Source of the DNA: Candidatus Woesebacteria bacterium | GTDB lineage: Bacteria; Patescibacteriota; Microgenomatia; UBA1400; MFAQ01 | Direction: 5' to 3' | Assembly (NCBI GenBank): GCA_035389185.1 | Contig: DAOORK010000001.1 | Coordinates: forward strand, 331,825 to 395,824 | DNA length: 64,000 nt | Shown here: one piece after another, positions 7,336 through 48,475 of the stretch | Layout: every line of letters starts with the position of its first letter | Numbering within the stretch: position 1 is the stretch's first letter | The notes under the pieces: generated by a model | Database searches by the model: none | Told to the model about the DNA's origin: nothing | Seen by the model: the letters and a program-made list of their open reading frames with translations, nothing else | Made by a program: the position numbers and the translations under genes

Positions 7336-7337
7336 AG

Positions 7338-8243: not shown

Positions 8244-8311
8244 TAATTTGATTATAGTGTATTCAAGACAGCTGTTTATTATGAACTGACGCGTTAGAAT
8301 ATATTTAGATT

Positions 8312-14000: not shown

Positions 14001-14200
14001 ACGGGATAAGCCGAATGAGTGGACTCTTGATACTGGAATCTAGGTAGATCCAGGGGTGTTTGATTTGGCTCTGACCAACCTTCATAACCTCTCACCGGAT
14101 TGGAAATAGTGACGAAGGCATTCTTTCCGAAAGCTAGTGTTGATTGAGGAAACAACAAAAGGATTAAGGGGACAAGTAGAGGAAGAAGTTTCTTAAACAT
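11006..14200 (-). CDS. Large fused envelope protein: signal peptide, ~500-aa extracytoplasmic domain, ~14-TM core and C-terminal domain (putative GT-C-like glycosyltransferase or polysaccharide polymerase)
   Basis: The ORF of up to 1096 aa probably starts at the internal Met (MFKKLLPLLVPLILLLFPQSTLAFG), which gives a classic signal peptide and avoids a 104-nt overlap with the flippase gene. The central region is very hydrophobic. A soluble C-terminal tail follows. Confidence 0.45.
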   Translation of the reverse strand: MFKKLLPLLVPLILLLFPQSTLAFGKNAFVTISNPVRGYEGWSEPNQTPLDLPRFQYQESTHSAYPVTWLLRFDAVSSATISAYFADLFETDKNQSLGAFLEITPSLTAQAGVVYPPGTYMSNPNRIFLSGYSQKDRLKLIDTYMKAFFDRFGFYPTAVSAWDLDSYSLQYLQTRYSILTAMNCDDQYSTDHYRIWGGYVGSPYYPDKNNSLIPAASAKNRINLIMVRWAQRDLYNFYGTAGAFSYSVQVNDYLSYGLDTTYFEKLLAQYTQKGFNELSHINLGLENDYSLDLYQKEISSTYRLLEKNREKYNLEYVSLAELGNIVKAYYPESSPTYFYRTLDSTNRENGEVFWYQSYRYRIGLKTANGQTQIIDFRVYNREIYEDYFAVPNQTTDLYSEIPAIIDSVKTPGSELTLNIDLSQFKTTYDKQWDLWQITLENGNQKIYLLPDSIKFVNIVAPVIESADIKILNNKQETTWQASPHTPLKDYAQYSWLFWVVIFFFLVLLIKKIIKKGKPKIPSTLLFGFLCAFIVCLTVFRNGLNFSFGQGYFGPNGHDAIFHLSLIEKFSQNPLDLSHPQYAGEKLTNYHFVFDYFSGLLSWFFNIPASTLYFRFLPILFCFALVFLLDRLMEKWHYSKTTKIFGFLLVFFAGSFGFIPKLLTSQNVFSGESSFWANQSASIFLNPPYALSLIFLLLFLLNLPSEGKIKALQFIKLALLGGLLAQTKIYAFVLLCLALLFTRRLSILIVVGIIGALITLPLSSFSGSPFIFDPLWFPRSLFASYDRFYWPKFVEAWQAYEASGNFLKLFAVNLFSVLAFLVGNLGMRIFGFFSIAKDKNTDISRKIVSVIIVLGIVLPLFITQKINPWNTIQFMYYSLFFLGLFTAEYLSRLLSRFRTKTIAVFVITLFLLVATFTSIGTLKDYLGNTSPSRVSYPEMKALDTLKSKEKGVVLSPIYVKADWVAGPKPLYAYVSSAYISALSGQPEFLSDTINLDITGFQYQSRIRDIQRFYNTKDKVWANNFLQKNNIKYVYETPLQKITLNPYDLSLTKIYDSGEIKVYQKK

Positions 14201-19626: not shown

Positions 19627-20163
19627 TTATTTGAAGACGGTGTCTCTGTAATATTTTAACTCATCGATTGATTCCAAAATATCATCGTGAGCCCGATGAG
19701 GTTCAACTTTAGAAAAAGGTTTGTTGTGAGGATACCAACGACCAGCAAGCTCTTTAATGGTAGAGACGTCAATAATACGATAGTGAACAAAATCAGCCAG
19801 CTTGGGCATCTGAATCCTAAGGAATTCCCGATCGATGTGGATAGAGTTGCCGGCAAAAAGAGCCGTGTTTTTGGGACAGTGTTTTTTGAGAAAAGAAAGA
19901 GTTTTTTCTTCTGCTTCGTCTGTGGATATTTTTGATTCATGAATTTCATTGAGAAGACCCGACTCGGCAAAATGTTCCTGGCACCAATCGTTAATTTTGT
20001 TCATCACTGAAGCCGGATGATGAATAACGATGTCTGGACCTTCGGCAACAACGTTTAGTTCGGCGTCGGAAATAATAGTCGCAATTTCAACAATTTTATC
20101 TTTTTCTGGATCAAGACCGGTCATCTCTAGATCAAGCCAGATGAGTTTACCGTTGGTAATCAT
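19627..20163 (-). CDS. orn: Oligoribonuclease (3'-5' exoribonuclease, DEDDh family)
   Basis: LIWLDLEMTGLDPEKDKIVEIA...HRAHDDILESIDELKYYR matches the Orn N-terminus and the DEDDh catalytic motifs. The start was moved to the internal Met (MITNGKLIW), consistent with Orn N-termini and with the upstream gene's stop at 20160. Confidence 0.85.
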   Translation of the reverse strand: MITNGKLIWLDLEMTGLDPEKDKIVEIATIISDAELNVVAEGPDIVIHHPASVMNKINDWCQEHFAESGLLNEIHESKISTDEAEEKTLSFLKKHCPKNTALFAGNSIHIDREFLRIQMPKLADFVHYRIIDVSTIKELAGRWYPHNKPFSKVEPHRAHDDILESIDELKYYRDTVFK

Positions 20164-21644
20164 TTGGAGTGAGCTAGTTGGTAGATTTTTAGATAATCGA
20201 TACTCCACTCGGAAACAATGTGTGATGGACCAAAGACCGCAATTTGCCATCCGGGGTTACCTTCAGGTTGGCATTTATCCCCATCTTCGCAGATTACAAA
20301 AAGCCAGTCGGTAATTCTCTCTTCCCCCCTAATGAGGTTGGCTTTTTTGTTTTCTAAGAAGTAACGATACGACTCGTCATAGTTTTGTTTGGCAATAAGA
20401 CCAAAATTGAAGGGCTCCCCTTTTGATTCTTTGATAATCAAGTCCGCAGCGGCTTCTGTACGTTGAAGCTGTCGATTGGGTTGGCCAAAGGTAGGACTAT
20501 ATCTTAAATTGACAAATAATAGGGCCAAAACAGTAAGAAGGGCTACGACTTTTAAGACAAAGCCTTTTCTGGAAAGGAAATAGCCGATTAGGGCACCGAG
20601 CAAAAGATACACTGCCGGGTAGATAAAGCCAAGGTAGTGAACATAAACATGCTGTTTGTAGATACTTAACCCAAAAATTCCGAAAGCAAGCCAGATATAA
20701 AGAAGCTTTAACTGGGGGCGCCATTTTGACTTGAAAAATATAAAAACGGACAATAAAAGAATTGCCACTGAGATAAGGGGAACACTAATATTCTGACGAG
20801 CCAGAACGAGATCGGTAACGGTGGTAATAATGACCGGAACAAAACGATCTGACTTGGTGGGATTGAGATTAACAGTGGTTTGACGATCGGTGAAGAATTT
20901 TTCGAAAGCGTGGAAATTCATACCTTGATGTTTGATATCAAAAAGAACAAGCGGTGACATAAGTACTAAAAACAAAGCAATGGCTAATAGGGTATTCTTG
21001 ACGAAATGTGAACGAAGAGTTTTGTCTTTTCTTATCCGGAGGAGAGAAATGAGCCAGAAAAAACCTAAAGTGGGAGCTAAAAGCAGACCGAGATAATGCA
21101 TTTGCAAAGCAAAGGCAAAAGAAACACCAACAATAGGCAACCAAAAATATTTTTTATTTTGCCAGACCTGATAGACTCCCCAAATACAAAGAAGGGCAAA
21201 AAGAGGCATAGGGTTGGGATTCCAAGAAGAGCGTGAATAAATTATGGCAACCGGAGAAACGGAGAATAAAGCCGCCGCAACCAAACCGGCACTTTTGTTG
21301 AACCAAGATCTACCAACAAACCAGGTAAGGCCGACGGTAAGAACTCCCAGTAGGGCAACCATAATAGCCGGACCGACTGGATTAAGATTAGACAAAAATA
21401 ACGCCGGGGCCATCATGTAGTAATAAAGCGGACCCAAGTACATGTTGCCAATACTAGTTTGAGGTCCGATGAAAACTAAGTTGCCTCTGGTAATAAGGTC
21501 ACGAACAATACGAACGTCGCGCCCTTCATCTCCCAAGAAAGTCATGAACTCACCAATGCGATATAGGCGCAAAAATAAGGCTAGACCAAGAATACCAATT
21601 AATATAAAGAACTCTAGACGATTTTTTTTGATCCAGTTGATCAT
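20160..21644 (-). CDS. GT-C fold membrane glycosyltransferase (GT39/GT83-like)
   Basis: 494 aa with the N-terminal loop FMTFLGDEGRDVRIVRDL (DE motif) and more than 10 TM helices. Confidence 0.65.
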   Translation of the reverse strand: MINWIKKNRLEFFILIGILGLALFLRLYRIGEFMTFLGDEGRDVRIVRDLITRGNLVFIGPQTSIGNMYLGPLYYYMMAPALFLSNLNPVGPAIMVALLGVLTVGLTWFVGRSWFNKSAGLVAAALFSVSPVAIIYSRSSWNPNPMPLFALLCIWGVYQVWQNKKYFWLPIVGVSFAFALQMHYLGLLLAPTLGFFWLISLLRIRKDKTLRSHFVKNTLLAIALFLVLMSPLVLFDIKHQGMNFHAFEKFFTDRQTTVNLNPTKSDRFVPVIITTVTDLVLARQNISVPLISVAILLLSVFIFFKSKWRPQLKLLYIWLAFGIFGLSIYKQHVYVHYLGFIYPAVYLLLGALIGYFLSRKGFVLKVVALLTVLALLFVNLRYSPTFGQPNRQLQRTEAAADLIIKESKGEPFNFGLIAKQNYDESYRYFLENKKANLIRGEERITDWLFVICEDGDKCQPEGNPGWQIAVFGPSHIVSEWSIDYLKIYQLAHSK

Positions 21645-27674: not shown

Positions 27675-28437
27675 AATTTAAATCAATATCTATCAGTGAG
27701 TCCATCCACTTTAACTGTTGGGACTTAATTTTTTGGGCTGCTTCGGATTTTTCTGAAAAATAGTTCTCGCTTTCAATGTTGGCTAAATCCTCTTCAGAAA
27801 GAAGGGTGTTGGCCAGTTCGTCTATTGAAGCGTTGATACTTTTCCCAAGTTTTTGCAGATCCTCAATTTTTGTCTTTAAAGGAGTTGATATTGGTGTGGC
27901 AAGTTTTGGCAAAATAATATTAAGGGCGTTATCCATTTCTTGCTGGAAATGAACCAGTAAGGATAGTTTGTAAGCCACGACTCCAGCACGGGAACTGTGA
28001 TCGTGTTCGATAACGTTGGTGTTGTATTCTTGGGTAAAGTTTTTAAGATCGGCTGGGGTAGCAATTGATTGTGACTTTAGAGCTTCATTACTAAAAAAAT
28101 TCTTGGCCTTGGTGAGGGAGAAAATAATAGGGTCGATGTTTTTGTAATTTGCTTTAGTATTTTTTATCAGAGAAAGCAGGTACTCCGCGTAGTTTGATTT
28201 TGCCAGATCTCTGGCGGAAAGAGTTTCTTTGGCTGCCAAAATTGCTTTTTGCTGATTATCTAGTGTGGGGTTACTTATGTAATCGCTTTTAAGTAATTTG
28301 TATTCGATATATTTTCCTCGATAGAGACTATATTGATATTCGTAATCTGATTTGGCATCTGCCAAAACAGTCGTTGTCCCAAAACAAAAAAAGATAGATG
28401 GTAGTATAAGCAAAAGCAGCTTTGAAAAAAGCTTCAT
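27661..28437 (-). CDS. Hypothetical secreted protein
   Basis: 258 aa with a signal peptide (MKLFSKLLLLILPSIFFCFGTTTVLA) and helical composition. Confidence 0.4.
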   Translation of the reverse strand: MKLFSKLLLLILPSIFFCFGTTTVLADAKSDYEYQYSLYRGKYIEYKLLKSDYISNPTLDNQQKAILAAKETLSARDLAKSNYAEYLLSLIKNTKANYKNIDPIIFSLTKAKNFFSNEALKSQSIATPADLKNFTQEYNTNVIEHDHSSRAGVVAYKLSLLVHFQQEMDNALNIILPKLATPISTPLKTKIEDLQKLGKSINASIDELANTLLSEEDLANIESENYFSEKSEAAQKIKSQQLKWMDSLIDIDLNYAHS

Positions 28438-29333
28438 TACTTTAAGGATAACCCCTGACCGATAAGTATTTCAACCACAGTCTGCCAAGCAGAAAAATGA
28501 AGACCCAATTTTTTCTCGGTAGCAACTGTTTTTAGACCGCCAAAAACCGGGTAACGGCTTTTGTTGGTTTGGGTTGCTAGAAAGGTATGGATCGAAGAAG
28601 ATTTGATGACTGAAGGATCACCCCCAAGCTGATCGACCACGTAGGTAATTAATTCAAAGGGAGTTGTGGTATCGGAGCAACAGTGGAAGATACCAGTTTT
28701 TTCTGTATCGATAATTTTTTCCAGTGTCTGGGCAACTTCATCGATGAAGGCAATACAGATTTGCTGGTCATTGAACAGAGGATACATAGTTCCATCGACA
28801 TATTTTTTGACTGCGCCACGAATATAGTCTAGCTTGGCGTCAAACTGGGCACGGACGGGATAAATGATGCGAAGAATTGTACCTCCGTGGTTGAGGACCA
28901 CTTTTTCGGCACGATTTTTGGTCCAACCATACCAAGTGAGATTTTCGGGCGAGTCGGGAGTTTTATCGGTTTCAGAATAAGGACCGGGGTGTTCAACACT
29001 GCCAGGGAAAACCATGTCGGTACTGATGTGAATAATTTTTTTGGAAGGAAAAGCATTGACGAGATTTTCGGTACCTTCAACATTAATTTTCCAAGCGGGG
29101 CCAGTGTTATCCCCTGTTTGAGTTTCTGCGGCATTGACGTCGGTAAAAGCGGCAAAGTTTACAATCCATTCGGGATTAAACTTGTCAATGGCATTTTTAA
29201 CTGAGCTCGGGTCGGTAAGGTCAAATTCCGGATATTCGGGAGTGAAAAAATCGTATTTATTCTGGGCAAGTTCGATAAAGCGAGAACCAACAAGTCCTGA
29301 GGCTCCGGTGACTAAAACTTTTATTTTGTTCAT
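28437..29333 (-). CDS. rfbD: dTDP-4-dehydrorhamnose reductase
   Basis: 298 aa with KVLVTGASGLVGSRF, an NAD(P)-binding Rossmann fold and an HISTDMVF motif. It sits in an rfbABCD cluster. Confidence 0.75.
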   Translation of the reverse strand: MNKIKVLVTGASGLVGSRFIELAQNKYDFFTPEYPEFDLTDPSSVKNAIDKFNPEWIVNFAAFTDVNAAETQTGDNTGPAWKINVEGTENLVNAFPSKKIIHISTDMVFPGSVEHPGPYSETDKTPDSPENLTWYGWTKNRAEKVVLNHGGTILRIIYPVRAQFDAKLDYIRGAVKKYVDGTMYPLFNDQQICIAFIDEVAQTLEKIIDTEKTGIFHCCSDTTTPFELITYVVDQLGGDPSVIKSSSIHTFLATQTNKSRYPVFGGLKTVATEKKLGLHFSAWQTVVEILIGQGLSLK

Positions 29334-29336
29334 AGA

Positions 29337-29900
29337 TTACATCGTTTCCGGTTTGACAAAATCAAAGGAGACTTTTGCCGGATCGATTCGGCATTCTTGA
29401 GTGTCTTCGGTAGCTACAAAGAATTTATCGGTGAAGTAATTGAGAGTGACAGGAGTTGTTGAGGGATTGATAAAGCCGTGGGCTAAGCCGGCAGGAATGT
29501 AAACAAGTTTTTCGGAAGATAGAACGATTTTCATCTGTTTGCCGTAGGTTGGAGAACCGGTACGAAAATCAATTAGACCGAGAAGGATAGTGCCGTTGGT
29601 CGTCCAGATCTCATTCTGGACTGGATGAATATGCCAAAACCGTTGGGTGTAGGGAGCAAGATAAGACATATTACCCTGAACCGGCTTGAACTCAATACCA
29701 AGTTCTTTGAGAGCAAGATTGTTACCTTTTTCGTCGAGTCTGAGGGTTTCTTTGAACCAACCGCCAAAATCATCAGCGAAGGTGTTTAGTTTAAGAATTT
29801 GAACGCCATCAATCATGTCAGCTTTTTCGTAAGTCTGGCAAAAAAGATTGCTGTCTTGAGGAAGAGTAATGTTTTGATATTTTATTGGTTTAAATCCCAT
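29337..29900 (-). CDS. rfbC: dTDP-4-dehydrorhamnose 3,5-epimerase
   Basis: 187 aa with a cupin fold and DDFGGWFKETLR-type RmlC motifs, in the rfb operon. Confidence 0.75.
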   Translation of the reverse strand: MGFKPIKYQNITLPQDSNLFCQTYEKADMIDGVQILKLNTFADDFGGWFKETLRLDEKGNNLALKELGIEFKPVQGNMSYLAPYTQRFWHIHPVQNEIWTTNGTILLGLIDFRTGSPTYGKQMKIVLSSEKLVYIPAGLAHGFINPSTTPVTLNYFTDKFFVATEDTQECRIDPAKVSFDFVKPETM

Positions 29901-29909
29901 TTTGTTTAA

Positions 29910-30908
29910 TTATTTTTTATAAATAGATTCCGATTTTTCTTTAAGAGGCTTCCACCATGCCTCATTTTCTTTATACCACTCGACTGTCTTCTGAAGCCAT
30001 GTGTCGAAGTCGTATTGGGGAGCCCAACCGAGGTCCTTATTAATCTTGGTCCAGTCGACGGCGTAACGGCGGTCGTGACCGGGACGGTCGGTGACAAATT
30101 CGATTTTTTCATCGGGATTCATGCCAAGAAGTGAGATAACCTTCTGAGCGATTTCAAGATTATTTATATCTTCGGTCATACCACCAACACAGTAGGTTGA
30201 ACCGGGTGCGGCGTTGTGAAATACCATATCAATAGCACGGCAATGATCGAGGACATGAAGCCAGTCACGAACATATTTTCCATCACCGTATACTTTGACC
30301 TTTTCACCTGTTAACAAATTGGTGATCATACGAGGCATAAACTTTTCAGGATCTTGGAATGGGCCAAAGTTATTACTGCAGTTAGTGATCGTTACAGGGA
30401 CCCCAAAAGTATCGAAATAAGACCTCACGAGATGGTCTGAAGCGGCTTTGGATGCTGAGTAAGGGCTGTGAGGTTCATAACGAGTTTCTTCGTTGAATTT
30501 ATCTTGGCTATCTAGCGGTAAAGCTCCAAAAACCTCGTCGGTTGAAACATGATGAAACTTTTTGATGCCGTATTTCTTGGCTGCCTCGAGAAGAATTTGG
30601 GTACCGATAATGTTGGTTTTGGTAAAAACAAGGGGATCAAGAATTGAACGGTCAACGTGAGACTCGGCGGCAAAATGGATAATAGCCTCTACTTGAGAGA
30701 CAACTTTGTCGACAGCTACAACATCGGTAATATCCCCTTTCACAAAAGTGTAATGAGGATTATTTTCAACACTTTTGAGAGATTCGAGGTGACCGGCATA
30801 GGTTAGGAGATCAAAGTTTATGATTTCATCTTCAGGATATTTTGCCAGCCAGTATTGGACAAAGTTGGATCCGATAAAACCTGCTCCTCCAGTGACGAGT
30901 ATCTTCAT
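29910..30908 (-). CDS. rfbB: dTDP-glucose 4,6-dehydratase
   Basis: 332 aa with MKILVTGGAGFIGSNFV and a YxxxK catalytic motif (YSASKAASDHLVRSY). Confidence 0.85.
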   Translation of the reverse strand: MKILVTGGAGFIGSNFVQYWLAKYPEDEIINFDLLTYAGHLESLKSVENNPHYTFVKGDITDVVAVDKVVSQVEAIIHFAAESHVDRSILDPLVFTKTNIIGTQILLEAAKKYGIKKFHHVSTDEVFGALPLDSQDKFNEETRYEPHSPYSASKAASDHLVRSYFDTFGVPVTITNCSNNFGPFQDPEKFMPRMITNLLTGEKVKVYGDGKYVRDWLHVLDHCRAIDMVFHNAAPGSTYCVGGMTEDINNLEIAQKVISLLGMNPDEKIEFVTDRPGHDRRYAVDWTKINKDLGWAPQYDFDTWLQKTVEWYKENEAWWKPLKEKSESIYKK

Positions 30909-31991
30909 TTAGAATGTTATTTTACTTAATTCACCGACTAAGACTTCGACCTTGTTCTCAGAACGGGGGTTTTGAGATAGATGAGTACTGGGGCCGATGA
31001 TACTGTCATCGATGTTCTTCTTTATCTTATCAATAATAACGCCTTCCATCAGAACTGAGTCGGTAATGGTTGAGCCGATGACGGTACAGTTGTGATAAAT
31101 AGAGGTAAAAGGACCGATATTGGCGTCGTTGATGATACAGTTGTCACCAATATTGACCGGACCTTTGATAACAGTGTTTTTGATCTCACAGTTCTTGCCG
31201 ACAACGACACGACCGTGAATTTTGACGGTGTCGTCAAGCTTGGAATCGATATTGGTTTTGGTGTTGGCGTCCAAAAGGAACATATTGGCTTCCAACCAGT
31301 CATCAACTTTGCCCGGGTCAAGCCATTCGCCTTTGATTTCGAGAGTGTCGACGCGTTCACCATGGTCAATTAACCACTGAAAGGCTGCGGCAATCTCTAG
31401 TTCTCCTCTTTCCGAAGGTACTATTTTGTCTTTGCCTTTGAAACAATCAAAGATCATATTGTCGAAGAAGTAGACACCAGGGATGGCATAGTCGTGGGGA
31501 GGGTTGGCTGGCTTCTCAACATATTTGATCAATCTGCCTTTTTCATCAAAATAAGGGACACCCAAACGAGTGTTTTCGGGGTGATGGACAATACCGACCA
31601 AACCCTTGGGGCGATGAGTGTTGAAGTGATCGACTAAATTTTCTATTCCTCCATTAAAAATGTTATCTCCGAGGTGAAGAATGAAAGAATCTCCATCAAT
31701 GAAGTCTTCACAGACTTGAAAAATGTTGGCTAAACCTCCAACTGGATTTTCCTGAAGAACATAAGTAAATTTGGCTCCCCATTTTGAGCCATCTCCTAAA
31801 ACAGATTGAACTAACTCTAAACCTCCTGGGTTATAAGTAAAGGCAATTTCTTTTACTCCAGCCTCAAGAACAGCTTCGATGGGATAAAAGATAAGAGGTT
31901 TGTTCCCCACGGGAATCAAGTGCTTATTAGCAGAAAAAGTTAGAGGTCTCATTCTGGTGCCTCTTCCACCGGTTGGGATAATTGCTTTCAT
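30909..31991 (-). CDS. rfbA: Glucose-1-phosphate thymidylyltransferase (long form with C-terminal left-handed beta-helix)
   Basis: 360 aa. MKAIIPTGGRGTRMRPLT is the nucleotidyltransferase signature. The C-terminal hexapeptide-repeat region resembles the ~355-aa RmlA long forms. Confidence 0.75.
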   Translation of the reverse strand: MKAIIPTGGRGTRMRPLTFSANKHLIPVGNKPLIFYPIEAVLEAGVKEIAFTYNPGGLELVQSVLGDGSKWGAKFTYVLQENPVGGLANIFQVCEDFIDGDSFILHLGDNIFNGGIENLVDHFNTHRPKGLVGIVHHPENTRLGVPYFDEKGRLIKYVEKPANPPHDYAIPGVYFFDNMIFDCFKGKDKIVPSERGELEIAAAFQWLIDHGERVDTLEIKGEWLDPGKVDDWLEANMFLLDANTKTNIDSKLDDTVKIHGRVVVGKNCEIKNTVIKGPVNIGDNCIINDANIGPFTSIYHNCTVIGSTITDSVLMEGVIIDKIKKNIDDSIIGPSTHLSQNPRSENKVEVLVGELSKITF

Positions 31992-38949: not shown

Positions 38950-39783
38950 TTAATCATTTCGGTGACGAAAATATAGCCAAGATCCGGAAGTGAGTAGTAA
39001 GAACACCCCAAAGAAAAAGAAATATTTACTATTTACAGGGTTGTTTTTTCTGACCGCTGGGGAAGTAGCTTCAACAAAAATTGATGGAGATGTATCCACA
39101 ACGACTGACTCGGTGGCAATCCCTAAGACATCCGGTGTCAAAGAGGATGAAACCGACGAGATTTTTGGGGTGCTGGTTGGGGCAGGAGTAATCTTAATAG
39201 TAGCTTTTGTGGGTGTTTTTATGGGTGTAGGAGTGTTGGTAGGAGTGGGTGTCGGAGACGATGTGGGGGTCGCCGTAGGAGTGTTGGTTGAAGTTGGAGT
39301 AGGAGTTGGAGTATCAGTCGGAGTAACAACAACTTCTGAGATTTCAACTGAAAGGGTGTTGTCTGACTCTCCCGCCGAAGAAGTGCTATTGCCGGTGTAA
39401 CGTTTTAGTTTGAGAATGTATGTTCCCGGACCAAGATAATCTGAGTCGTCCGGATCGTTTGTAAAAAGAATTTTTATTTTTTGGTCGTTTTCCAGTTTAA
39501 TAAAGTTTTCAGTAATAAATTCTTTTTCCGGTGAAGAAATGTAGTTTATCCACTCCCCTTTTTGACTCCACATTTTCCCGAAATAGTGAGGATCTCCTGG
39601 AGCGGTGAGAACCGTTTGGACAAAACATGAAGAGGAAGAGGCAAGCCCACTAACAAGAGCTTCGACAGAATAGAAGCTATCACTTTTTTCGACATTGGAA
39701 ATGGTGAGAGAAATGGCGGCTGATGCCACCTTTGGAAAGACGCAAAAACACAGTAGAAACAGCACGGGCAGGATTTGTTTCAC
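38950..39783 (-). CDS. Secreted Thr/Pro-rich surface protein with C-terminal membrane anchor
   Basis: 277 aa with a signal peptide, a folded N-domain, a ~60-aa TPTxTP linker (TPTDTPTPTPTSTNTPTATPTSSPTPTPTNTPTP...) and a C-terminal hydrophobic segment with an RHRND tail. Confidence 0.55.
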   Translation of the reverse strand: MKQILPVLFLLCFCVFPKVASAAISLTISNVEKSDSFYSVEALVSGLASSSSCFVQTVLTAPGDPHYFGKMWSQKGEWINYISSPEKEFITENFIKLENDQKIKILFTNDPDDSDYLGPGTYILKLKRYTGNSTSSAGESDNTLSVEISEVVVTPTDTPTPTPTSTNTPTATPTSSPTPTPTNTPTPIKTPTKATIKITPAPTSTPKISSVSSSLTPDVLGIATESVVVDTSPSIFVEATSPAVRKNNPVNSKYFFFFGVFLLLTSGSWLYFRHRND

Positions 39784-39873: not shown

Positions 39874-40959
39874 GTGACAAATAGATTCGATTTTTCTGTT
39901 CTTAAAAGACCAGCTGTCCCTCACAACGTGATTATCATCGGAGATTTTCTCAAAGATCTAGATGATGAACATTCGTTATGTGGAGTCGCCGGGCTAATCA
40001 AACTGGGGTTCGTGTCTTTGAAAGCAGTGGTTGCTAACTTGGCTCCTGCGGAACTAAGAGCAAGAGGAGCTAAGGGGACATTGAATACTCTCGGGTTGAC
40101 GTCGATCCCTGTTGGGGTAGGTTTACCGATAATTGAGGGAGATGTTGACCCTTATGAAGCTAATCTACCCTACCTAGCTTCTCCTGACGAAGTGATTCAT
40201 TATGGCACTATGCTGGTAAAAACTCTTAGGGAGTGTCCTGATAATTCCGTTATTCTCGTGTTGCAGTCCGCAATGACCGACGCAACTGTGTTGCTTTCTA
40301 TGTACAGGAATCTGGTGATGGATAAGGTCAAAACAGTGGCAATTATGGGAGGTGTCGAAACTGATAGAGAGAAAGTCATACTTTGCGATGACGGTATGAT
40401 GATCCCAAACAACGCCAATAATAACAGTTTTGATATGCAGTCCGCGATCTGGCTTTATAGACAGTTGCAGAGGAAAAATATACCCTTGGTGATCACTACA
40501 AGAGAAGCTGCTTATGCAGCACAAGTACCATTTAAGGCATACGATGAGTTTGAAGAAACCGGCAACCCGATTGGCGCTTGCCTTAAAAACCGTCAGTTGC
40601 CTTCGATGCAACATCTCTGGGTAGCGGCTTGTTCGCCTGCCGGATCAGAAATACGCGGAACATTGCCTGACGACAGGAATCGAGAATGGTTTGTCAGAGT
40701 GTACTGCGATGGAGTTGACCCTGAGATTGGATCTACCGACAGTATCTGGCCGTACGTCCGCTGTTTTAATCTCTACGACCCGACGAACCTGTATGCGGCG
40801 ATTCCGGAACTTAGGGAGTACTTTCTGAAACCACATATCGTTCATGTTGGCGAGACGGACCATATGATAGTAGGTCTTTCCAAACAAAATAATGGTGTCG
40901 TCAATCCTGAACAATTTTCCAAGTTTATGGTGGATATTGAGTTACTTGGATTGCAGTAG
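39874..40959 (+). CDS. Hypothetical cytoplasmic protein, weakly nucleoside-hydrolase-like (IUNH fold?), compositionally distinct
   Basis: 361 aa with a GTG start 5 nt after an AAGGAGG RBS. The N-terminal IIIGDFLKDLDDE acidic motif, a central VAIMGGVETD and NNSFDMQSAIW loosely resemble inosine-uridine nucleoside hydrolase motifs. GC content and codon choice are visibly higher than in the flanking genes. Confidence 0.3.
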   Translation: MTNRFDFSVLKRPAVPHNVIIIGDFLKDLDDEHSLCGVAGLIKLGFVSLKAVVANLAPAELRARGAKGTLNTLGLTSIPVGVGLPIIEGDVDPYEANLPYLASPDEVIHYGTMLVKTLRECPDNSVILVLQSAMTDATVLLSMYRNLVMDKVKTVAIMGGVETDREKVILCDDGMMIPNNANNNSFDMQSAIWLYRQLQRKNIPLVITTREAAYAAQVPFKAYDEFEETGNPIGACLKNRQLPSMQHLWVAACSPAGSEIRGTLPDDRNREWFVRVYCDGVDPEIGSTDSIWPYVRCFNLYDPTNLYAAIPELREYFLKPHIVHVGETDHMIVGLSKQNNGVVNPEQFSKFMVDIELLGLQ

Positions 40960-40964
40960 ATTTT

Positions 40965-40990
40965 ACCCAGCCGAAAGGCTGGGTTTTTTG
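40965..40990 (+). terminator. Rho-independent terminator (likely bidirectional, between convergent genes)
   Basis: Stem acccagcc, loop gaaa, stem ggctgggt, followed by a T6 run immediately after the stop at 40959. An A-rich stretch on the other side can serve the minus-strand gene ending at 40996. Confidence 0.75.
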
Positions 40991-40995
40991 TGATT

Positions 40996-42201
40996 TTAAT
41001 TAACCGTAACCTTATCGAAACGGAAAATTTGAGAGGTACTATATGTATCTGAAAACTTTTTATCGTAACCGTTTTCCATATAAGGATCGTTCATTATGTA
41101 GCCATCACCATTCTTTCCTTTGATGACTATAAAGTGGGTACCATAGCCAGTATTGAGTCCGGCAATAATCGGCCGGCCGGCATTGAGTTCGTTATCAACG
41201 GCATCGCTGGACATTCCTTGCTGTCTGTTTACTGTTACGCCGTTTACAGTCCAGCTGCCAGCATTCATATAAGCAGTGGAAGGGAAAAATGGATTTGTAC
41301 TTGCAGCAATATCAGATGGTTTAATATTTTTTCCATAATGAGAAGCAATCATGGCAGTTGAAGTAATTAAACAACCGACTCTTCCCACAGTTTCGCGAGA
41401 GTTACCAATAATTTGAGAGAACCATATTGAGTCTCTTTGACTGTAATAACATCCCCAACCATCACAGTGAGTCTGATTGCTTAAAGGAGTTGCTCCTGAC
41501 GTAAAACCTCTCATAGCGGCAACCAAAGCACTGGCTTGAGCTAACAATGTCTGGTATCTCTTTTCATCATTTTGGGTGAGAATTAGAACCTTTTGTTTCT
41601 CGGCTTGCTGGGCGTTAAGAGTGTTCTTCTGGGCAACAAGTTTTGCTTTTAATGCCTCAACTTCTTTTTGTTTGGCAACTTTATCTGTTTTTCTTTGATC
41701 ATAATCAAGTCTGGATTTTTCCAGCTCGGCCAGTATTAGCTGGTCTTTTGTTTTGATGGTATTTAGATACTTTACTTTATTGAAGTAGTCCCCGATTGAG
41801 TCGGAAGAAAAAATTAAATCGAATGAAGTCACACGTGTCTGTTTGTAACTCTCACGAACACGGGCTAAATAAATTTTTTCTAACTGATCCATGGAGTCAG
41901 TAACGGTTTCGAGTACCCCATCAAGAACATCAACTTCTTTTTCGAGTGTTTTTATCTGAGCTTGAGTTCGATTTATCTGAGCTTGGGCGAGGTTAATTTT
42001 GGAATTTAAAGTAGTTATTGTTTGTTTGAGAGTGGCCTGACTTGATTGATTGGCTGAGATACTCGATTCACAAGCTTTTATAAAATCATCTAGCTGGTCT
42101 GAAGAAATACTTTGGGGGTCGGCGTCACAAGTTGTGGCAAAAACATTCTTTGGGATCAAAAAAATGATGCATACCAGAAGTAGGGTGACTTTCCATTTCA
42201 T
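40996..42201 (-). CDS. Secreted coiled-coil protein with C-terminal papain-like cysteine peptidase domain (C39-like/CHAP-like); putative FtsEX-regulated peptidoglycan hydrolase (PcsB/CwlO analogue)
   Basis: 401 aa with a signal peptide, ~220 aa of Q/K/E-rich heptad-like coiled coil, then a domain with candidate catalytic Cys (VGCLITSTAMIASHYG) and His (GTHFIVIKG). It lies directly downstream of ftsX-ftsE. Confidence 0.6.
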   Translation of the reverse strand: MKWKVTLLLVCIIFLIPKNVFATTCDADPQSISSDQLDDFIKACESSISANQSSQATLKQTITTLNSKINLAQAQINRTQAQIKTLEKEVDVLDGVLETVTDSMDQLEKIYLARVRESYKQTRVTSFDLIFSSDSIGDYFNKVKYLNTIKTKDQLILAELEKSRLDYDQRKTDKVAKQKEVEALKAKLVAQKNTLNAQQAEKQKVLILTQNDEKRYQTLLAQASALVAAMRGFTSGATPLSNQTHCDGWGCYYSQRDSIWFSQIIGNSRETVGRVGCLITSTAMIASHYGKNIKPSDIAASTNPFFPSTAYMNAGSWTVNGVTVNRQQGMSSDAVDNELNAGRPIIAGLNTGYGTHFIVIKGKNGDGYIMNDPYMENGYDKKFSDTYSTSQIFRFDKVTVN

Positions 42202-43109
42202 TTTGAACGATTTACAAACCTGGTGGCTGCGAAGAGACTAGATAAGAAAGAGATTAGCAAGCCAAAGACAAGCATACCTCCAAATAAAATCAGGATGTAA
42301 GTGAAGGGTATGGGAAATGAAATTATGGAACCAATCCTGGGGGCCAAAAATGGGGTTGAGTAAAGAACAATAATAAAACACCCTAGCCAGCCTACGATGG
42401 AACCAATAAGACCATAAACGATCGACTCCTGAAGATAGGGTTTGATAATGTACATATTTTTTGCACCCATTAGCTTGAAGGTACTGATTTCAAATCTTCT
42501 TGAAGATATCTTCATGGAAATAGTCGCCATAATAGTGAGAATCGCAACGAGAGTGAGAGCAATGACTAAAGCAAGACCGCCAATTCGAATTGCATTGGTC
42601 CACTTTGTGAGCTCGGTGATAACGTCTTGGGGGTAATCGATTTCTTTATTCCCTTGGGGTGTGACGCTGACAATATCGCTTTTTTCCAAAGTGACAGCAA
42701 TCGACTTGAAGGCATCGGGATTGGTAGCGGTAATCTCGACACTAGCAGGCAAAATGTCGGCGGTAACAATACCCCAATCGGTGACTGTACCTAGTAAAAC
42801 CGGATCATTACCAACACTTTCTTTGTAGAGTTTGAGTGCGTCTTCTTTACTTATGTAAACCGCTTTTTTGACACCTTCGGTGGTGTTTAGAGAACTTATT
42901 AATCCGCCAACCTGCTCAGTTGTGTGTCCGTCTTTGAGATAAGCGATTATTTGGGGACGGGTTTCAAAGTTGTTGAGTATCTGCTGGGAAGCAACCGTGA
43001 CCAGAGAAAATATGCCGACAATAAAAATGGTAAGACTAACAATAAAAATGGCAGATAAGGCCTGATATGGAGAACGGCGAATGTTTCTGATGGCAGTTTT
43101 CATGATCAT
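42198..43109 (-). CDS. ftsX: Cell division ABC transporter permease FtsX
   Basis: 303 aa with TM1, a large extracytoplasmic loop and three C-terminal TM helices. It is coupled to ftsE. Confidence 0.8.
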   Translation of the reverse strand: MIMKTAIRNIRRSPYQALSAIFIVSLTIFIVGIFSLVTVASQQILNNFETRPQIIAYLKDGHTTEQVGGLISSLNTTEGVKKAVYISKEDALKLYKESVGNDPVLLGTVTDWGIVTADILPASVEITATNPDAFKSIAVTLEKSDIVSVTPQGNKEIDYPQDVITELTKWTNAIRIGGLALVIALTLVAILTIMATISMKISSRRFEISTFKLMGAKNMYIIKPYLQESIVYGLIGSIVGWLGCFIIVLYSTPFLAPRIGSIISFPIPFTYILILFGGMLVFGLLISFLSSLFAATRFVNRSK

Positions 43110-43110
43110 A

Positions 43111-43803
43111 TTAGTCTTTTACCTCTTTTTTATCGAGAGGATGGTCTTCCTCTTTAACTATCTTACCTTTTTGCAAATGGATATGGCGTCCTTGGTTGAG
43201 GTTGATCAAAGTGACATCGTGTGTGGCCATAATGACCGTGGTACCAGCCGAGTTTATTTTTTTGAGAAGATCAAAAATGTCTAGTGAGGTTTCTTTATCT
43301 AGGTTGCCTGTAGGTTCATCAGCAAATAAAATTTTGGGATCTCCAGCAATAGCACGAGCAATCGAAGCTCTTTGTATTTCTCCGCCGGAAAGCTGTCCCG
43401 GAAAAAGATTTTCTTTTCCTGAAAGACCAACTAATTCCAGTATGTGTTTTACTTTTTCAGGGATTTTTTCGGCTTCGTAACCAGAAATTTCAAGAGACAC
43501 AATAATATTCTCACCAACAGTTTTGTCGGGAATCATTCTGAAATCTTGGAAGGCAAAACCGATTTTGCGACGAAGTAGGGGAATATTTTGGGGTTTGATT
43601 TTGGTGAGATCTTCGCCATCAACGACAATTTTGCCTTTATCAGGTATAAGGTCATGTATAAGGAGACGACCGATCGTAGTTTTTCCTGCTCCAGATTTGC
43701 CGGTGATAATGACGAATTCTCCTGGAGACACAGAAAAATCGATGTCGTCTAGAACTACATCTCCGTTGGGATATGATTTGGTGACATGGATATAGTCGAT
43801 CAA
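43111..43803 (-). CDS. ftsE: Cell division ATP-binding protein FtsE
   Basis: 230 aa with Walker A GKSGAGKTT, ABC signature LSGGEIQR and Walker B ILFADEPTGNLD. Confidence 0.85.
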   Translation of the reverse strand: MIDYIHVTKSYPNGDVVLDDIDFSVSPGEFVIITGKSGAGKTTIGRLLIHDLIPDKGKIVVDGEDLTKIKPQNIPLLRRKIGFAFQDFRMIPDKTVGENIIVSLEISGYEAEKIPEKVKHILELVGLSGKENLFPGQLSGGEIQRASIARAIAGDPKILFADEPTGNLDKETSLDIFDLLKKINSAGTTVIMATHDVTLINLNQGRHIHLQKGKIVKEEDHPLDKKEVKD

Positions 43804-43827: not shown

Positions 43828-44373
43828 TTACTCTGGTGCTGAGGCATTTAAAGCTTCAACTTTGGCACGGCCAACGTCCATTAGCCAACCAACTTTTTGG
43901 CCTTTGAAAGTTTCTCCCCAGATGGAAACCTGATCACCAACGAGTTGATCAAGGTCGATTGTGGAACTGGTGAGATATACGGTTTGAGATACTCCACCCG
44001 AACGAAGAAGCTTGTGAGTCCCCTCTCCGTTGTACCCACCCTTTTCCAAAACTCCAGTGGCGGAGTCTTTGAAGATTTTTTCGTCCGCCGAGCCATAAAT
44101 GTCTCCAACTTTGGCTCCAGTTGAAGGAACTTCGGCTTGAATCCCTGATAATTCGGCAGAGACGATTTTGCCTGAATTTTTGGCTTTTAGCCAAGATCCG
44201 GAATAAAAACCTACTGCAGCAATGACCAAAAAGAGAACAATTTTCAAGGGGAATTTTTTCTTGTTAGTTTTGGCAAGTGGTGCTTCCGCAGCAAAAGATG
44301 GGGTTTCGGGAGTTGAGTTGGTAACAGGAGTGGTTGATTCACCCTTGTCGAGGTCGATCATTTTTATATCCAT
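43828..44373 (-). CDS. Hypothetical membrane-anchored protein
   Basis: 181 aa with an acidic N-terminus, one TM helix and an extracytoplasmic beta-rich domain. Confidence 0.35.
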   Translation of the reverse strand: MDIKMIDLDKGESTTPVTNSTPETPSFAAEAPLAKTNKKKFPLKIVLFLVIAAVGFYSGSWLKAKNSGKIVSAELSGIQAEVPSTGAKVGDIYGSADEKIFKDSATGVLEKGGYNGEGTHKLLRSGGVSQTVYLTSSTIDLDQLVGDQVSIWGETFKGQKVGWLMDVGRAKVEALNASAPE

Positions 44374-44385: not shown

Positions 44386-45495
44386 TCAAATTTGCCGCGT
44401 CGGTGCGAAGAACTTCAACTCTGCCTCGATAAATTCATCCAGATTGCCATCAAGGACCGACTCTGGATTGCCGGATTCATAGTCCGTACGTAGATCTTTA
44501 ACTAGTTTGTAGGGATGCAGAACATAAGAACGGATCTGGGTTCCCCAACTAGCTTGAGTTTGTTCTCCCTTGATTTGGTTTAACTCACTTTGACGTTTGG
44601 CTTCCTGAATTTCCCAGAGTTTGGAGCGGAGCATATCCATAGCAATTTTGCGATTTTGGACTTGATATCGCTGAGTCTGACACTCGACAACAATACCTGT
44701 GGGGAGATGTTTGATACGAACAGCAGTACTAACCTTGTTGACGTTTTGCCCACCTGCACCGCCTGAACGACTAGCTTCAAACTCGATATCTTCATCACGA
44801 ATTTCAATATCAGTATTCTCCGGAAGAATCGGGGTCACCTCAACACCAGCAAAAGAAGTCTGACGAAGTTTATCGGCATTGAAAGGTGACTGGCGAACTA
44901 AGCGGTGAGTTCCTTTTTCGTTTTTGAGGAAACCAAAAGCGAAACGCCCATGAACCATGTAAGTGACGGATTTGATACCGGCTTCGTCACCAGGCGAGTA
45001 CTCAACGGTTTCGTAGTTCCAGCCTCTTTTTTCAAAAAATCTGGTGTACATTCGAGAAAGCATACTGGCCCAGTCCATAGCTTCGGTACCCCCTTGGCCA
45101 GCTCTGATCGTCAGAATTGCCTCTGAAGGGTCGTATTTCTCGGAAAGAAAGGTGACTAGCTCGACTTTTTCGATGTGTTTTTCTAAGGTCTCTTTCAAAA
45201 TAAGAATATCGGTGTCCATAGAGTCATCTGACTGAGCTACAGCCATCTCAAAAAGCTCTACCAAGTTTTTGTATTCTGAGGTCAGCCCTTCAATCGAAGC
45301 AATCAGATCTCGAACCTCGGCAAGGCTAGACATTATTTTTTTGGCATTATCTTCGTCCTGCCAAAGTTCAGGCTTCCCCGACTCGATTTCAAGTTTTTGT
45401 TTTTCTTGTTCGAGAGAGGCAAAGTCTATCTTTTTTTGGAGATCTTCTATACGTCTTTGAAGATCGTTTAAATTAAGTTGGGTTTCGGATAGCAT
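44386..45495 (-). CDS. prfB: Peptide chain release factor 2 (single uninterrupted ORF)
   Basis: 369 aa. The SPF tripeptide (LVRQSPF) is diagnostic for RF2 as opposed to the RF1 PxT motif. A GGQ motif is present ([10 protein letters not shown]). Confidence 0.85.
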
Positions 45496-45568: not shown

Positions 45569-46612
45569 ATGAAACTTCTAAAAATTGTAAAAAGATTCTG
45601 GCTTTTATTTCTCATCGGTTTTTTGATCGGTGGGGGTATTGTGTGGTTTTCTAGTTCTGCCAAAGCAAAAAGTAACGAAGCAAATAAGTTCACTGTTAAG
45701 AGAGAGACTTTGACTGAAGTAGTGTCTCTTTCCGGTGAGATTGACGCTGAGGAAAAAGCTTCCCTGCGTTTTCAGACGTCCGGACACTTGACTTGGGTTG
45801 GGGTAAAAGAAGGTGATTTTGTGAAAAAATACCAGTCTTTGGCATCTCTCGACAAAAAAGAACTCCAAAATAGTATGAGTAAACTTTTGAATACTTACTC
45901 GAAGTCTAGATGGGATTTTGAACAAGCCCAAGCAGACAACAAAGATTGGCAAACCGATGGTATGACAGATGAAGCTCGTGACACCGTAAAGAGAACTTTA
46001 GACAAATATCAATTTGACTTAAACAACTCAGTATTGTCGGTGGAATCCCAATCCTTGGCGATGAAGTACGCTACTTTATGGACTCCGATCGAAGGAATTG
46101 TAACCAGTGTTGAGTCTCCTTTGGCCGGACAAAATATCACTCCAGCTACCGCCACATTTGAGGTGGTAAATCCTAAAACAATATTTTTCTCTGCAACTGC
46201 AGATCAGACAGAAGTTGTTTCTTTTTCTGTTGGCATGAAGGGAAAACTCTCGCTTGACTCCTTTCCTGATACAGAACTTGTCGGCGAGATCGTTAGTGTT
46301 GGATTTGTACCCAAAACTGGAGAGTCATCGACGGTTTATGAAATAAAAATCGCCGTAGATACAACACCTATTGGAGACAAAATTAAAATGGGAATGACAG
46401 GTGACGCCGAGTTTGTTTTGAAAGAGATTAAAGACGTGTTGGTAGTTCCAGAAAGTTATATTAAAAAAGAAAATGGTAAATATTACGTGACGGTATACGA
46501 GGGGAAAATAAAGACCAAAAAAGAAATTACTATTGGGGAAACCGTCGAGGGTTTGGTAGAAATTACAGGAGGACTAAATGAAAAAGACGTCATCTATTAT
46601 CAGCCTAAGTAA
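45569..46612 (+). CDS. Efflux transporter periplasmic adaptor subunit (MacA/HlyD family membrane fusion protein)
   Basis: 347 aa with an N-terminal TM helix and a coiled-coil region plus beta-barrel domain pattern. It lies upstream of MacB-like ATPase and permease genes. Confidence 0.7.
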   Translation: MKLLKIVKRFWLLFLIGFLIGGGIVWFSSSAKAKSNEANKFTVKRETLTEVVSLSGEIDAEEKASLRFQTSGHLTWVGVKEGDFVKKYQSLASLDKKELQNSMSKLLNTYSKSRWDFEQAQADNKDWQTDGMTDEARDTVKRTLDKYQFDLNNSVLSVESQSLAMKYATLWTPIEGIVTSVESPLAGQNITPATATFEVVNPKTIFFSATADQTEVVSFSVGMKGKLSLDSFPDTELVGEIVSVGFVPKTGESSTVYEIKIAVDTTPIGDKIKMGMTGDAEFVLKEIKDVLVVPESYIKKENGKYYVTVYEGKIKTKKEITIGETVEGLVEITGGLNEKDVIYYQPK

Positions 46613-47276
46613 TATCTCTAAGGAATATGTGATGGGTGATGAATCGGTTTTTTCGGCATTGTCGGATGTTAGTTTAGAAATTCATAAAGGTGAGTATTCT
46701 GCCATTGTGGGACAGTCCGGATCCGGAAAATCAACTTTGATGCATATTATTGGACTTCTGGATAAACCAACTCGAGGGAAAATTATCATCAATGGAAAAG
46801 ACACGGCTAAATTAAGCGATGACGAAACAAGTAAAGTAAGAAATCGATTTGTGGGATTTGTTTTTCAACAGTTTAATTTATTAAACAAACAAACTATTCT
46901 CGAGAATGTTTTACTGCCGGTAATGTATTCGAGAGAAAAGCTGGATTTTGATCCAGAAAAAAGAGCTCTTGAGTTACTTGAAAAATTTGGCATTTTGTCT
47001 AAAAAAGATTCGTATCCAAATAAAATCTCTGGGGGTCAGCAACAAAGAGTCGCGATAGCGAGAGCACTAATAATGAGTCCACAGTTACTTTTGGCTGATG
47101 AACCAACGGGTAATTTGGATACAAAAACCGGTAATGAAATACTGAGACTATTTGAAGACCTCAATAAGGAAGGAATTACTGTTTTGCTCGTGACTCACGA
47201 GCCGGATATTGCAGCTAGAACAAATAGACAAATTCGAGTGATGGACGGAAAAATTGTGGAGGATAACAAAAAATGA
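46578..47276 (+). CDS. ABC transporter ATP-binding protein (MacB/LolD-like)
   Basis: 232 aa with Walker A GQSGSGKST, signature ISGGQQQRVAIARAL and Walker B LLLADEPTGNLD. Confidence 0.85.
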   Translation: MKKTSSIISLSNISKEYVMGDESVFSALSDVSLEIHKGEYSAIVGQSGSGKSTLMHIIGLLDKPTRGKIIINGKDTAKLSDDETSKVRNRFVGFVFQQFNLLNKQTILENVLLPVMYSREKLDFDPEKRALELLEKFGILSKKDSYPNKISGGQQQRVAIARALIMSPQLLLADEPTGNLDTKTGNEILRLFEDLNKEGITVLLVTHEPDIAARTNRQIRVMDGKIVEDNKK

Positions 47277-48475
47277 GTAACATCGCCAACATCAAACAGT
47301 TATTTAAATCTGCTTTCGCCGATTTCCGACGCGATAAAGTACGCACGGGACTTACTTCTCTCGGTATCACGATTGGTGTTCTCTCTGTTGTGCTACTGAT
47401 TGCTTTGGGCTTGGGTCTGAAAAACTATATCCAGGATCAGTTTGAGAGTATGGGAGCAAATCTTGTTATGATCATGCCCGGTTCCGGATTTAGCAGTGGG
47501 AACATGGGCCCGGGAATGATGACGGGGACCGTGAAGTTTGATGAAAAAGATGTAAAAAACCTAAAGAAAATTGAGGAGCTGAAGTATGTGGTGCCAATAT
47601 TTATGTCTTCCACGACAATAAGTTCGGCTAACAAGGAAAAAATTGGCACGGTTATGGCAGTTAATGAGGAGGCTTTTCCTTTGTTAAATATAAAAATGCA
47701 GGTCGGTGAGACTTGGGGAAAAACTGAACTTAACAAGAAATCTAAAGTAGCAGTGATTGGATACACAATGACTGAAGATTTGTTTGAAAACATAAATGAT
47801 GCAATTGGAAAATCTATTACGGTTGAAGGAATGAGAATCAAGGTAATTGGAGTTTCTCAAAAGACCGGAGACCCAGACCAAGACGCGGCTATCTATATTC
47901 CATACACAACGTCTTTTGGATCAATTAATCCGGATAAAACTTTTTGGGGAATATATCTCGGAGTAATCGATAAAGACGATGTAACTGCGGTGACGGAAAA
48001 AGCAAAGGAAATCTTGTTGGAAAGATATGATAAAGATAAGTTCTCGGTAACGGAACAATCAGAGATCCTCTCAACGATTGATCAGATTTTTGGTATTATC
48101 AATATCGTTTTGGTCGCCATTGGCTCAATTTCTCTTCTTGTCGGAGGAATTGGGATTATGAATATCATGTATGCAACAGTAACAGAAAGAACTCGTGAAG
48201 TGGGTATTCGACGCGCTCTAGGGGCGACAAAAAGAGATATTCTCTTACAGTTTTTATCTGAGTCTACTTTATTGTCTGTTTTTGGAGGACTGATGGGATT
48301 AGTTCTTGCTACAGTAATTGTAATGTTGGTTAGGATTTGGTTCCCTGTAGCCTTGAATTTGGTAGCTGTTCTGGTTGCTATCGGCGTATCTAGCGCGATT
48401 GGAATTTTCTTTGGGGTATCCCCTGCCAAAAAAGCGGCCAATCTGTCCCCGATCGATGCTATCAGATATGAGTAG
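47273..48475 (+). CDS. ABC transporter permease (MacB-like, FtsX-fold with large periplasmic domain)
   Basis: 400 aa with an N-terminal TM helix, a ~220-aa periplasmic domain and three C-terminal TM helices (MacB_PCD/FtsX family architecture). Confidence 0.8.
   Translation: MSNIANIKQLFKSAFADFRRDKVRTGLTSLGITIGVLSVVLLIALGLGLKNYIQDQFESMGANLVMIMPGSGFSSGNMGPGMMTGTVKFDEKDVKNLKKIEELKYVVPIFMSSTTISSANKEKIGTVMAVNEEAFPLLNIKMQVGETWGKTELNKKSKVAVIGYTMTEDLFENINDAIGKSITVEGMRIKVIGVSQKTGDPDQDAAIYIPYTTSFGSINPDKTFWGIYLGVIDKDDVTAVTEKAKEILLERYDKDKFSVTEQSEILSTIDQIFGIINIVLVAIGSISLLVGGIGIMNIMYATVTERTREVGIRRALGATKRDILLQFLSESTLLSVFGGLMGLVLATVIVMLVRIWFPVALNLVAVLVAIGVSSAIGIFFGVSPAKKAANLSPIDAIRYE

Follow-up and report, generated by a model that had tools for sequence, protein, structure and literature searches.

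The stretch of DNA analysed here, referred to as the window, comprises 64,000 nucleotides (nt) from a Candidatus Woesebacteria contig; the organism is an ultrasmall bacterium of the Microgenomates, within the Candidate Phyla Radiation (CPR). On its minus strand lie five closely spaced genes in the order prfB, a gene for a 181-amino-acid (181-aa) protein, ftsE, ftsX and, at the end of the operon, a gene for a 401-aa protein, which is our subject (Table 1). The stop codon of ftsE and the start of ftsX are 1 nt apart, and the ftsX stop and the start of the 401-aa gene share 4 nt (ATGA). A first-pass annotation of this DNA had described ftsE and ftsX followed by a coiled-coil peptidase at 40996-43803, encoded together in one operon; the three minus-strand open reading frames (ORFs) agree exactly with its coordinates and motifs. 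Both the motif VGCLITSTAMIASHYG and the motif GTHFIVIKG are found in the 401-aa translation. That the gene is real follows from an identical protein on record, which NCBI names 'C39 family peptidase' and whose gene lies on a Candidatus Woesebacteria contig of 905,580 bp, and from 468 homologues at E<=1e-3; the Joint Genome Institute (JGI) pipeline names homologues 'peptidoglycan hydrolase CwlO-like protein'. We propose, with a probability of roughly 72%, that the 401-aa protein is an extracytoplasmic cell-wall hydrolase governed by FtsEX, made up of an EnvC-type hairpin adaptor and a C39-like cysteine peptidase.

Table 1. Coordinates of the features of the prfB-ftsEX operon, in positions of the window.
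Feature	Position	Strand	Basis or remarks
prfB (peptide chain release factor 2)	44386-45495	minus	Pfam PCRF 169 bits, RF-1 129 bits; first of the five-gene string
181-aa single-pass membrane protein, family-less	43828-44373	minus	Between prfB and ftsE; conserved position
ftsE, ABC ATPase, 230 aa, TTG start	43111-43803	minus	TIGR02673, Pfam ABC_tran
ftsX, permease-like with four transmembrane segments, 303 aa, extracellular domain at about residues 53-147	42198-43109	minus	Pfam FtsX, FtsX_ECD
401-aa coiled-coil C39-like peptidase gene (predicted secreted), stop included	40996-42201	minus
Sec signal peptide (predicted), residues 1-22	42136-42201	minus	Read by eye from the sequence
EnvC/PcsB-type helical hairpin, residues ~30-233	41503-42114	minus	Profile, Pfam/NCBIfam, AlphaFold2 model, Foldseek
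T-x-N-D-E hinge, residues 209-213	41563-41577	minus	T209, N211 and E213 at least 90% or fully conserved
C39-like papain-fold cysteine peptidase domain, residues 240-401	40999-41484	minus
Cys277 codon, predicted nucleophile	41371-41373	minus	Invariant; weakly aligned to the Cys motif of LahT (6mpz)
His356 codon, predicted base	41134-41136	minus	Invariant; aligned to 'HF' of LahT and of the T6SS effector 9jdd
Asp372 codon, predicted third triad residue	41086-41088	minus	Invariant D-P; aligned to 'DP' of LahT
G+C-rich DNA hairpin ACCCAGCC-GAAA-GGCTGGGT	40965-40984	plus (as called by the scan)	8 pairs, 6 of them G-C; consensus match only

The identity of the two genes upstream was assessed from profile matches. 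The 230-aa protein matches the TIGR02673 FtsE profile with 262 bits (E 4e-78), slightly below the equivalog cutoff of 264.85, about 90 bits above LolD and far above all other ATP-binding cassette (ABC) families; it also matches Pfam ABC_tran with 116 bits, and the Walker A (GKSGAGKT), signature (LSGGE), Walker B (ILFADEPT) and H-loop (ATHD) motifs are readable in its translation. The 303-aa protein matches Pfam FtsX with 53 bits and FtsX_ECD with 47.5 bits (cutoff, 23.5), as well as NCBIfam FtsX_Gpos and FtsX_Gneg with 154 and 146 bits, respectively. The latter two scores are under the strict cutoffs, as expected for a deep-branching phylum. By their sequences, the pair can be assigned to FtsE and FtsX proper, as opposed to ABC systems of the MacB or LolCDE type. 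A MacAB-like system, with an HlyD-family adaptor, an ABC ATPase and a MacB-type permease that has an FtsX-like C-terminal domain, is encoded at 45569-48475 (plus strand), divergent from the prfB-ftsEX operon; its permease is the second of FtsX fold inside 3 kb.

The 401-aa protein begins with a predicted Sec signal peptide, MKWKVTLLLVCIIFLIPKNVFA, followed by TT. In the alignment of homologues, read by eye, the pattern of n-, h- and c-regions with a cleavage site between VFA and TT recurs. Cys25 and Cys44, which follow the signal peptide, are conserved, as is the pattern A-x-x-C (alignment of 53 homologues); the two cysteines possibly form a disulfide, and the conserved cysteine pairs of the family suit an oxidising compartment. 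The alternative that Cys25 marks a lipoprotein was rejected because VFATTC contains no lipobox, that is, the cysteine is not the +1 residue of L-[AS]-[GA]-C.

A structural model of the protein was created with AlphaFold2, using the 53 homologues (predicted local distance difference test, pLDDT, 89.4; predicted template modelling score, pTM, 0.73). The resulting model consists of helices at residues 34-52, 58-121, 126-132, 136-209 and 213-233, with an alpha/beta domain after them, and its confidence drops at residues 120-140, the tip of the hairpin. The coiled coil amounts to about 200 aa (helices 34-233), close to the ~220 aa first estimated. When the family profile was compared with the PDB, it aligned co-linearly over about 200 residues with the coiled coil of EnvC in solved FtsEX-EnvC and EnvC-FtsX structures (8hd0, E 2.4e-9; 8tzk, 5.6e-7; 6tpi, 8.1e-7), and helix 213-233 aligned with the helix after that coiled coil. 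Pfam CC_PcsB matches residues 101-162 with 26.4 bits (cutoff, 27), and NCBIfam PcsB and EnvC match below their curated cutoffs. In a Foldseek comparison of the full-length model with the PDB, PcsB (4cgk) was the best match, accompanied by EnvC (8tzl, 6tpi) and RipC (8idc, 8jia). The profile alignment indicates homology between the hairpin and the coiled coil of EnvC, the part of EnvC that binds FtsX. This homology, together with linkage to ftsX, supports the interpretation of the protein as an FtsEX partner, already put forward in the first-pass annotation.

In other bacteria the FtsEX membrane complex turns on enzymes that cut the cell wall, and its known partners use LytM, CHAP or NlpC/P60 domains. 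EnvC of E. coli and V. cholerae (6tpi, 8hd0, 8tzk/8tzl) is secreted, as is predicted for the window protein, and resembles the latter in its homologous hairpin, in the helix and C-terminal globular domain that follow the hairpin, and in its association with FtsEX. The end of EnvC, however, is a degenerate LytM (M23) domain that works as an amidase activator, whereas the window protein ends in a C39-like domain with an intact Cys-His-Asp triad and, judged by these residues, is probably itself the enzyme. PcsB of S. pneumoniae (4cgk), which is FtsX-dependent, also combines a coiled coil with a cysteine peptidase of the papain superfamily, but this is a CHAP domain, which is not detected in the window protein. 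CwlO of B. subtilis and RipC of M. tuberculosis (8idc, 8jia) are likewise coiled-coil proteins, D,L-endopeptidases activated by FtsEX, and the fold match to RipC is to RipC in its FtsEX complex. In E. coli, envC presumably does not adjoin ftsEX, and we take pcsB to be unlinked to ftsEX as well.

Linkage of the hairpin gene to ftsX was assessed in two samples. A scan with one genome per species confirmed at least 287 relatives, and 80 loci from 80 species were kept for locus comparison; they come from Woese-, Collier-, Shapiro-, Gottesman-, Pace- and Levyibacteria, WWE3 and unnamed Patescibacteria. In all 77 informative loci, with protein identity as low as 34%, ftsX is the gene immediately upstream and has the same orientation; at the remaining three the contig ends 25 nt or less upstream. 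The commonest junction between the two genes is the 4-nt overlap (22 of 76 loci). Where the upstream sequence is long enough, the whole string from prfB to the hairpin gene is kept in most cases, and prfB is upstream of ftsE in nearly all loci. The second sample consisted of 80 metagenome loci chosen by FtsX alone, and the hairpin gene directly follows ftsX wherever the downstream sequence is readable. Taken together, these data demonstrate that linkage of the hairpin gene to ftsX is obligatory. Many records of metagenome-assembled genomes with a Microgenomates-type locus (L005-L007, L010, L020, L023-L025 and others) are titled 'uncultured Pseudomonadales', 'Gammaproteobacteria' or 'Saccharibacteria'; these titles are probably taxonomic mislabels.

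The C-terminal domain matches Pfam Peptidase_C39_2 (PF13529) with 41 bits (cutoff, 24), over residues 252-374 and profile positions 5-143 of 143, and precomputed PF13529 matches exist for most homologues. Weaker matches to Peptidase_C39 and C70 overlap that of C39_2 on the same domain; the one to Peptidase_C39 (PF03412) is marginal, at 24.5 against a cutoff of 22. Cys277 is the residue at which the Pfam C39 match begins. In the Pfam search, neither CHAP (PF05257) nor NlpC/P60 (PF00877) matched the 401-aa protein even at E<=1. Either identity was therefore rejected, the fold also being nearer to the C39 and PeiR groups, and the initial description of a papain-like Cys/His domain, C39-like rather than CHAP or NlpC/P60, proved correct. 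Gln255, Cys277, His356 and Asp372-Pro373 are invariant in the 53 homologues, down to 40% identity; Cys277, His356 and Asp372 are also invariant in a domain-only sequence set, and Cys246 and Cys251 are at least 90% conserved in the 53.

Fold comparison of the catalytic domain gave as best match a cell-wall isopeptidase, of the pseudomurein endoisopeptidase PeiR group (PDB 8z4h); the figures for the C39 group were 11.3 for PCAT1, 11.2 for ComA and 10.3 for LahT. A domain-only profile searched against the PDB gave sub-significant matches to 9jdd, a C39-like effector of a type VI secretion system (T6SS; 0.084), and to LahT (1.7), weak support that applies to the residue mapping in Table 1 only, and a single-sequence search of the C-terminal domain against PDB sequences gave chance matches only (CAP, E~0.45). 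In the literature searched, no substrate of 9jdd was found. The C39 domains of the bacteriocin ABC exporters ComA, PCAT1 and LahT are N-terminal and cytoplasmic and cut Gly-Gly leaders, whereas the window domain is predicted to be secreted, is C-terminal on an EnvC-like hairpin and would be coupled to a non-transporting ABC complex. Assignment to the bacteriocin-processing C39 peptidases (PF03412, ComA/PCAT type) was rejected because position, compartment and partner are all wrong: the domain comes C-terminally, after a signal peptide and a coiled coil, and there is no transporter fusion. The PeiR, PeiW and PeiP enzymes of methanogen viruses (8z4h) differ in turn; they show 16% identity, serve viral lysis of archaeal pseudomurein, have other repeats for wall binding at the N-terminus and are not linked to FtsEX.

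There are precedents for this fold acting on cell walls. PeiW and PeiP cut the Ala-epsilon-Lys cross-link of pseudomurein via a Cys-His-Asp triad (PMC4592898), and the catalytic domains listed for lysins of phages that infect Gram-positive bacteria include Peptidase_C39_2 (PMC8223927). In mycobacteriophage Lysin A, the best match of the N5 'cysteine protease' domain is the B. anthracis protein 3erv (PMC3314691); N5 and 3erv are both C39-like proteins included in our comparison. For the window protein, PHROGs give a weak endolysin match, and its viral fold neighbours are tape-measure proteins, cyanophage 'lysozyme'/endolysin proteins and a phi29-type wall hydrolase. The window also encodes secA and an S11 D-Ala-D-Ala carboxypeptidase; thus, the organism handles peptidoglycan.

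Unexpectedly, some relatives carry a different catalytic domain, here called the warhead, on the same hairpin. Three homologues (P0108, P0115 and P0117) have a hairpin 66-70% identical to that of the window protein but a Peptidase_M23 C-terminus. At the P0117 locus the order is prfB, a 182-aa gene, ftsE, ftsX, the hairpin gene, a 276-aa gene, VanZ, TsaE and a TsaD-family gene, in agreement with the window neighbourhood. Among the classifiable loci chosen by FtsX, 42 carry M23 and 17 carry C39. This M23 domain is circularly permuted relative to Pfam, with profile positions 57-96 before 1-53 (L081 3516-4721; L083, L085, L087 and 38 further loci); a literature search for 'circularly permuted' with M23 or LytM found no description of a permuted M23. 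It keeps HxH in 41 of 41 sequences, HxxxD in 41 of 41 and Y-x-H in 40 of 41, and so, unlike the LytM domain of EnvC, it looks active. Fitch parsimony on a neighbour-joining FtsX tree, a rough estimate, places M23 at the root and gives at least 11 warhead switches.

The points of exchange can be located in closely related pairs. Between L129 (C39) and L130 (M23), DNA identity is 95.7% as far as roughly codon 231 of the hairpin gene, beyond which the two are unrelated; between L116 and L117 it is 95.8% as far as roughly codon 215, again with unrelated sequence beyond. At the protein level, the junctions of both pairs fall right after T-x-N-[DN]-E (window residues 209-213), and hence the last helix travels with the warhead. 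In the window itself, DNA similarity to M23-type relatives stops at 41555-41591 (about codons 203-215), whereas similarity to close C39-type relatives extends to the stop codon. L005 (6001-7161) has an FtsX 83% identical to that of the window and a C39 protein 57% identical, its DNA similarity stopping at about codon 215 and its C39 domain being divergent; this comparison suggests that one C39 cassette can also take the place of another. Rarely, a hairpin-C39 gene and a hairpin-M23 gene stand in tandem, in that order, after ftsX (L116 4351-6902; L038, from WWE3, 5950-8461; L071 5938-8429). L117 has a single gene, with the first hairpin joined to M23, a pattern that unequal recombination between tandem paralogues would produce, and it is plausible that the tandem loci are intermediates of warhead swaps. 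The 64-kb window contains one hairpin gene and no second. Because C39 and M23 interchange on nearly identical FtsX and hairpin sequences, FtsX would appear to read only the hairpin, and both warheads to do the same job, most simply the cutting of peptide links in peptidoglycan. Helix 213-233, since it aligns with the helix after the EnvC coiled coil and is swapped together with the warhead, is a candidate for a warhead-specific latch.

Several points weigh against a C39-type wall hydrolase under FtsEX control. The E-values of the full-length Foldseek matches are weak (1e-3 to 2e-2), and no solved structure is matched significantly by the sequence of the catalytic domain. An oxyanion role for Gln255 is uncertain because this residue lies 22 residues before the cysteine, as against about 6 in papain and ComA. 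A broad 2019 review of wall hydrolase domains makes no mention of C39, our literature search turned up no case of bacterial peptidoglycan cleavage by a Peptidase_C39_2 member, and the characterised relatives nearest to the domain in sequence family (C39, C70) act as proteases on proteins or peptides. In the strongest alternative, the domain is not a wall hydrolase and FtsEX gates surface proteolysis instead; candidate substrates would be a leader of the Gly-Gly type, a protein of a surface layer or pilus, or the conserved Thr/Pro-rich neighbour. We consider this unlikely, since relatives place an active-looking M23, of a peptidoglycan endopeptidase family, in the same slot on the same hairpin, since the best fold match is a cell-wall isopeptidase, and since phage relatives occur in lysins and tape-measure proteins. 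To our knowledge, moreover, all known coiled-coil partners of FtsEX act on peptidoglycan.

A further alternative is that the protein is catalytically silent and, like E. coli EnvC, switches on another enzyme, for example an amidase. The sequence of its hairpin is indeed nearest to EnvC, in which a degenerate LytM domain serves for activation. Such activators, however, typically lose their catalytic residues, whereas Cys277, His356 and Asp372 are invariant across diverse sequences in both alignments and the alternative M23 warhead retains its metal-binding and catalytic motifs almost without exception; a silent activator is therefore improbable. That the adjacency reflects gene order only, the protein being independent of FtsEX, is the least probable of all: the prfB-to-tsaE neighbourhood is syntenic throughout the lineage and slow genome rearrangement could account for linkage, but linkage holds at all informative loci however divergent, often with overlapping stop and start codons, while other neighbours vary (for example, by an inserted gene at 39874-40959), the hairpin is homologous to the FtsX-binding part of EnvC, and 96%-identical pairs of ftsX and hairpin tolerate unlike warheads, which would be expected were the hairpin all that FtsX reads.

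The preferred reading, an FtsEX-governed wall hydrolase, can be cast as a mechanism. The 401-aa protein would be exported by Sec and would act as the third, extracytoplasmic component of the FtsE-FtsX machine, with the tip of its two-helix hairpin docked on the extracellular domains of an FtsX dimer. ATP binding and hydrolysis by cytoplasmic FtsE would be relayed via FtsX to the hairpin, whose movement may free the catalytic domain, which at rest is probably self-inhibited; the candidate latch is the last helix (213-233). Catalysis would be carried out by Cys277, His356 and Asp372, most likely on a peptide bond in a peptidoglycan stem or cross-link, and cleavage of the wall, whether for division or for wall growth, would be confined to the place and time of FtsEX activity. 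The hairpin may be a generic adaptor, on which the last helix and the warhead form a cassette that has been traded many times between C39 and permuted M23, through recombination at the T-x-N-D-E hinge and sometimes through tandem C39 and M23 pairs. We give even odds to the wider proposal that C39-like peptidases are a further fold in FtsEX-governed housekeeping wall hydrolysis, and that the hairpin is a fold-agnostic, force-transmitting adaptor with cassettes swapped at this hinge. The parts have already been labelled by automated pipelines; no paper that links FtsEX to a C39-type partner was found in the literature searched, a search outside which most subscription journals lie.

Within the operon, the 181-aa protein may be a further component of the FtsEX module. 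Profile searches gave it no Pfam, NCBIfam or PDB match; by tblastn, most of the 80 related loci have a homologue, whose place is always between prfB and ftsE, and the ORF could be extracted in 66. Its extracellular part carries the strongly conserved motif GEGTHHL..GG.SQ.VYLTSS..DL...G.KV.VWGET...QKAGWLMDVG. The DNA hairpin beyond the 401-aa gene lies between convergent genes and, by its sequence, is likely the terminator at the operon end. The plus-strand gene at 39874-40959, wedged between the coiled-coil gene and the Thr/Pro-rich gene, encodes a 361-aa protein that resembles inosine-uridine nucleoside hydrolases only weakly (21 bits, under the cutoff). The gene was rejected as part of the FtsEX module and is taken as a local insertion, because only 2 of 161 related loci have it (L010, L101). 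The 277-aa product of the Thr/Pro-rich gene at 38950-39783 (minus strand) has no Pfam match; besides the long stretch rich in Thr and Pro, it has a signal peptide and, at the C-terminus, a hydrophobic anchor. In relatives, homologous genes come after the coiled-coil gene (L081, 276 aa; L117, 296 aa).

Elsewhere in the window there is a large surface-glycan region, with at least five paralogous membrane glycosyltransferases of the PMT_2 family (1364-3163, 8312-9862, 15649-17361, 17361-18875 and 20160-21644) that adjoin a polysaccharide flippase and rhamnose-type nucleotide-sugar genes (listed with 28437-31991). At E<=1e-5, Pfam gave no match for two large minus-strand ORFs, at 11006-14296 (1096 aa) and 3931-5463 (510 aa).

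The control of wall hydrolysis by FtsEX is a conserved point at which bacterial growth and division are regulated. A C39-type warhead on an FtsEX adaptor would, if the reading is true, widen the set of enzymes governed by FtsEX, and the large uncharacterised Peptidase_C39_2 family would gain a concrete physiological role. The repeated swapping of cassettes and the permutation of M23 add somewhat to the significance of the C39 partner. If the cassette reading is true, autoinhibition and release must act through the latch helix alone, and both warheads must cut equivalent bonds. The natural chimeras, in which the same FtsX and hairpin carry C39 or permuted M23 across a defined junction, are a ready-made experiment on how an ABC ATPase signals mechanically to unrelated catalytic domains, and they open a first way into the study of wall remodelling in uncultivated members of the CPR.

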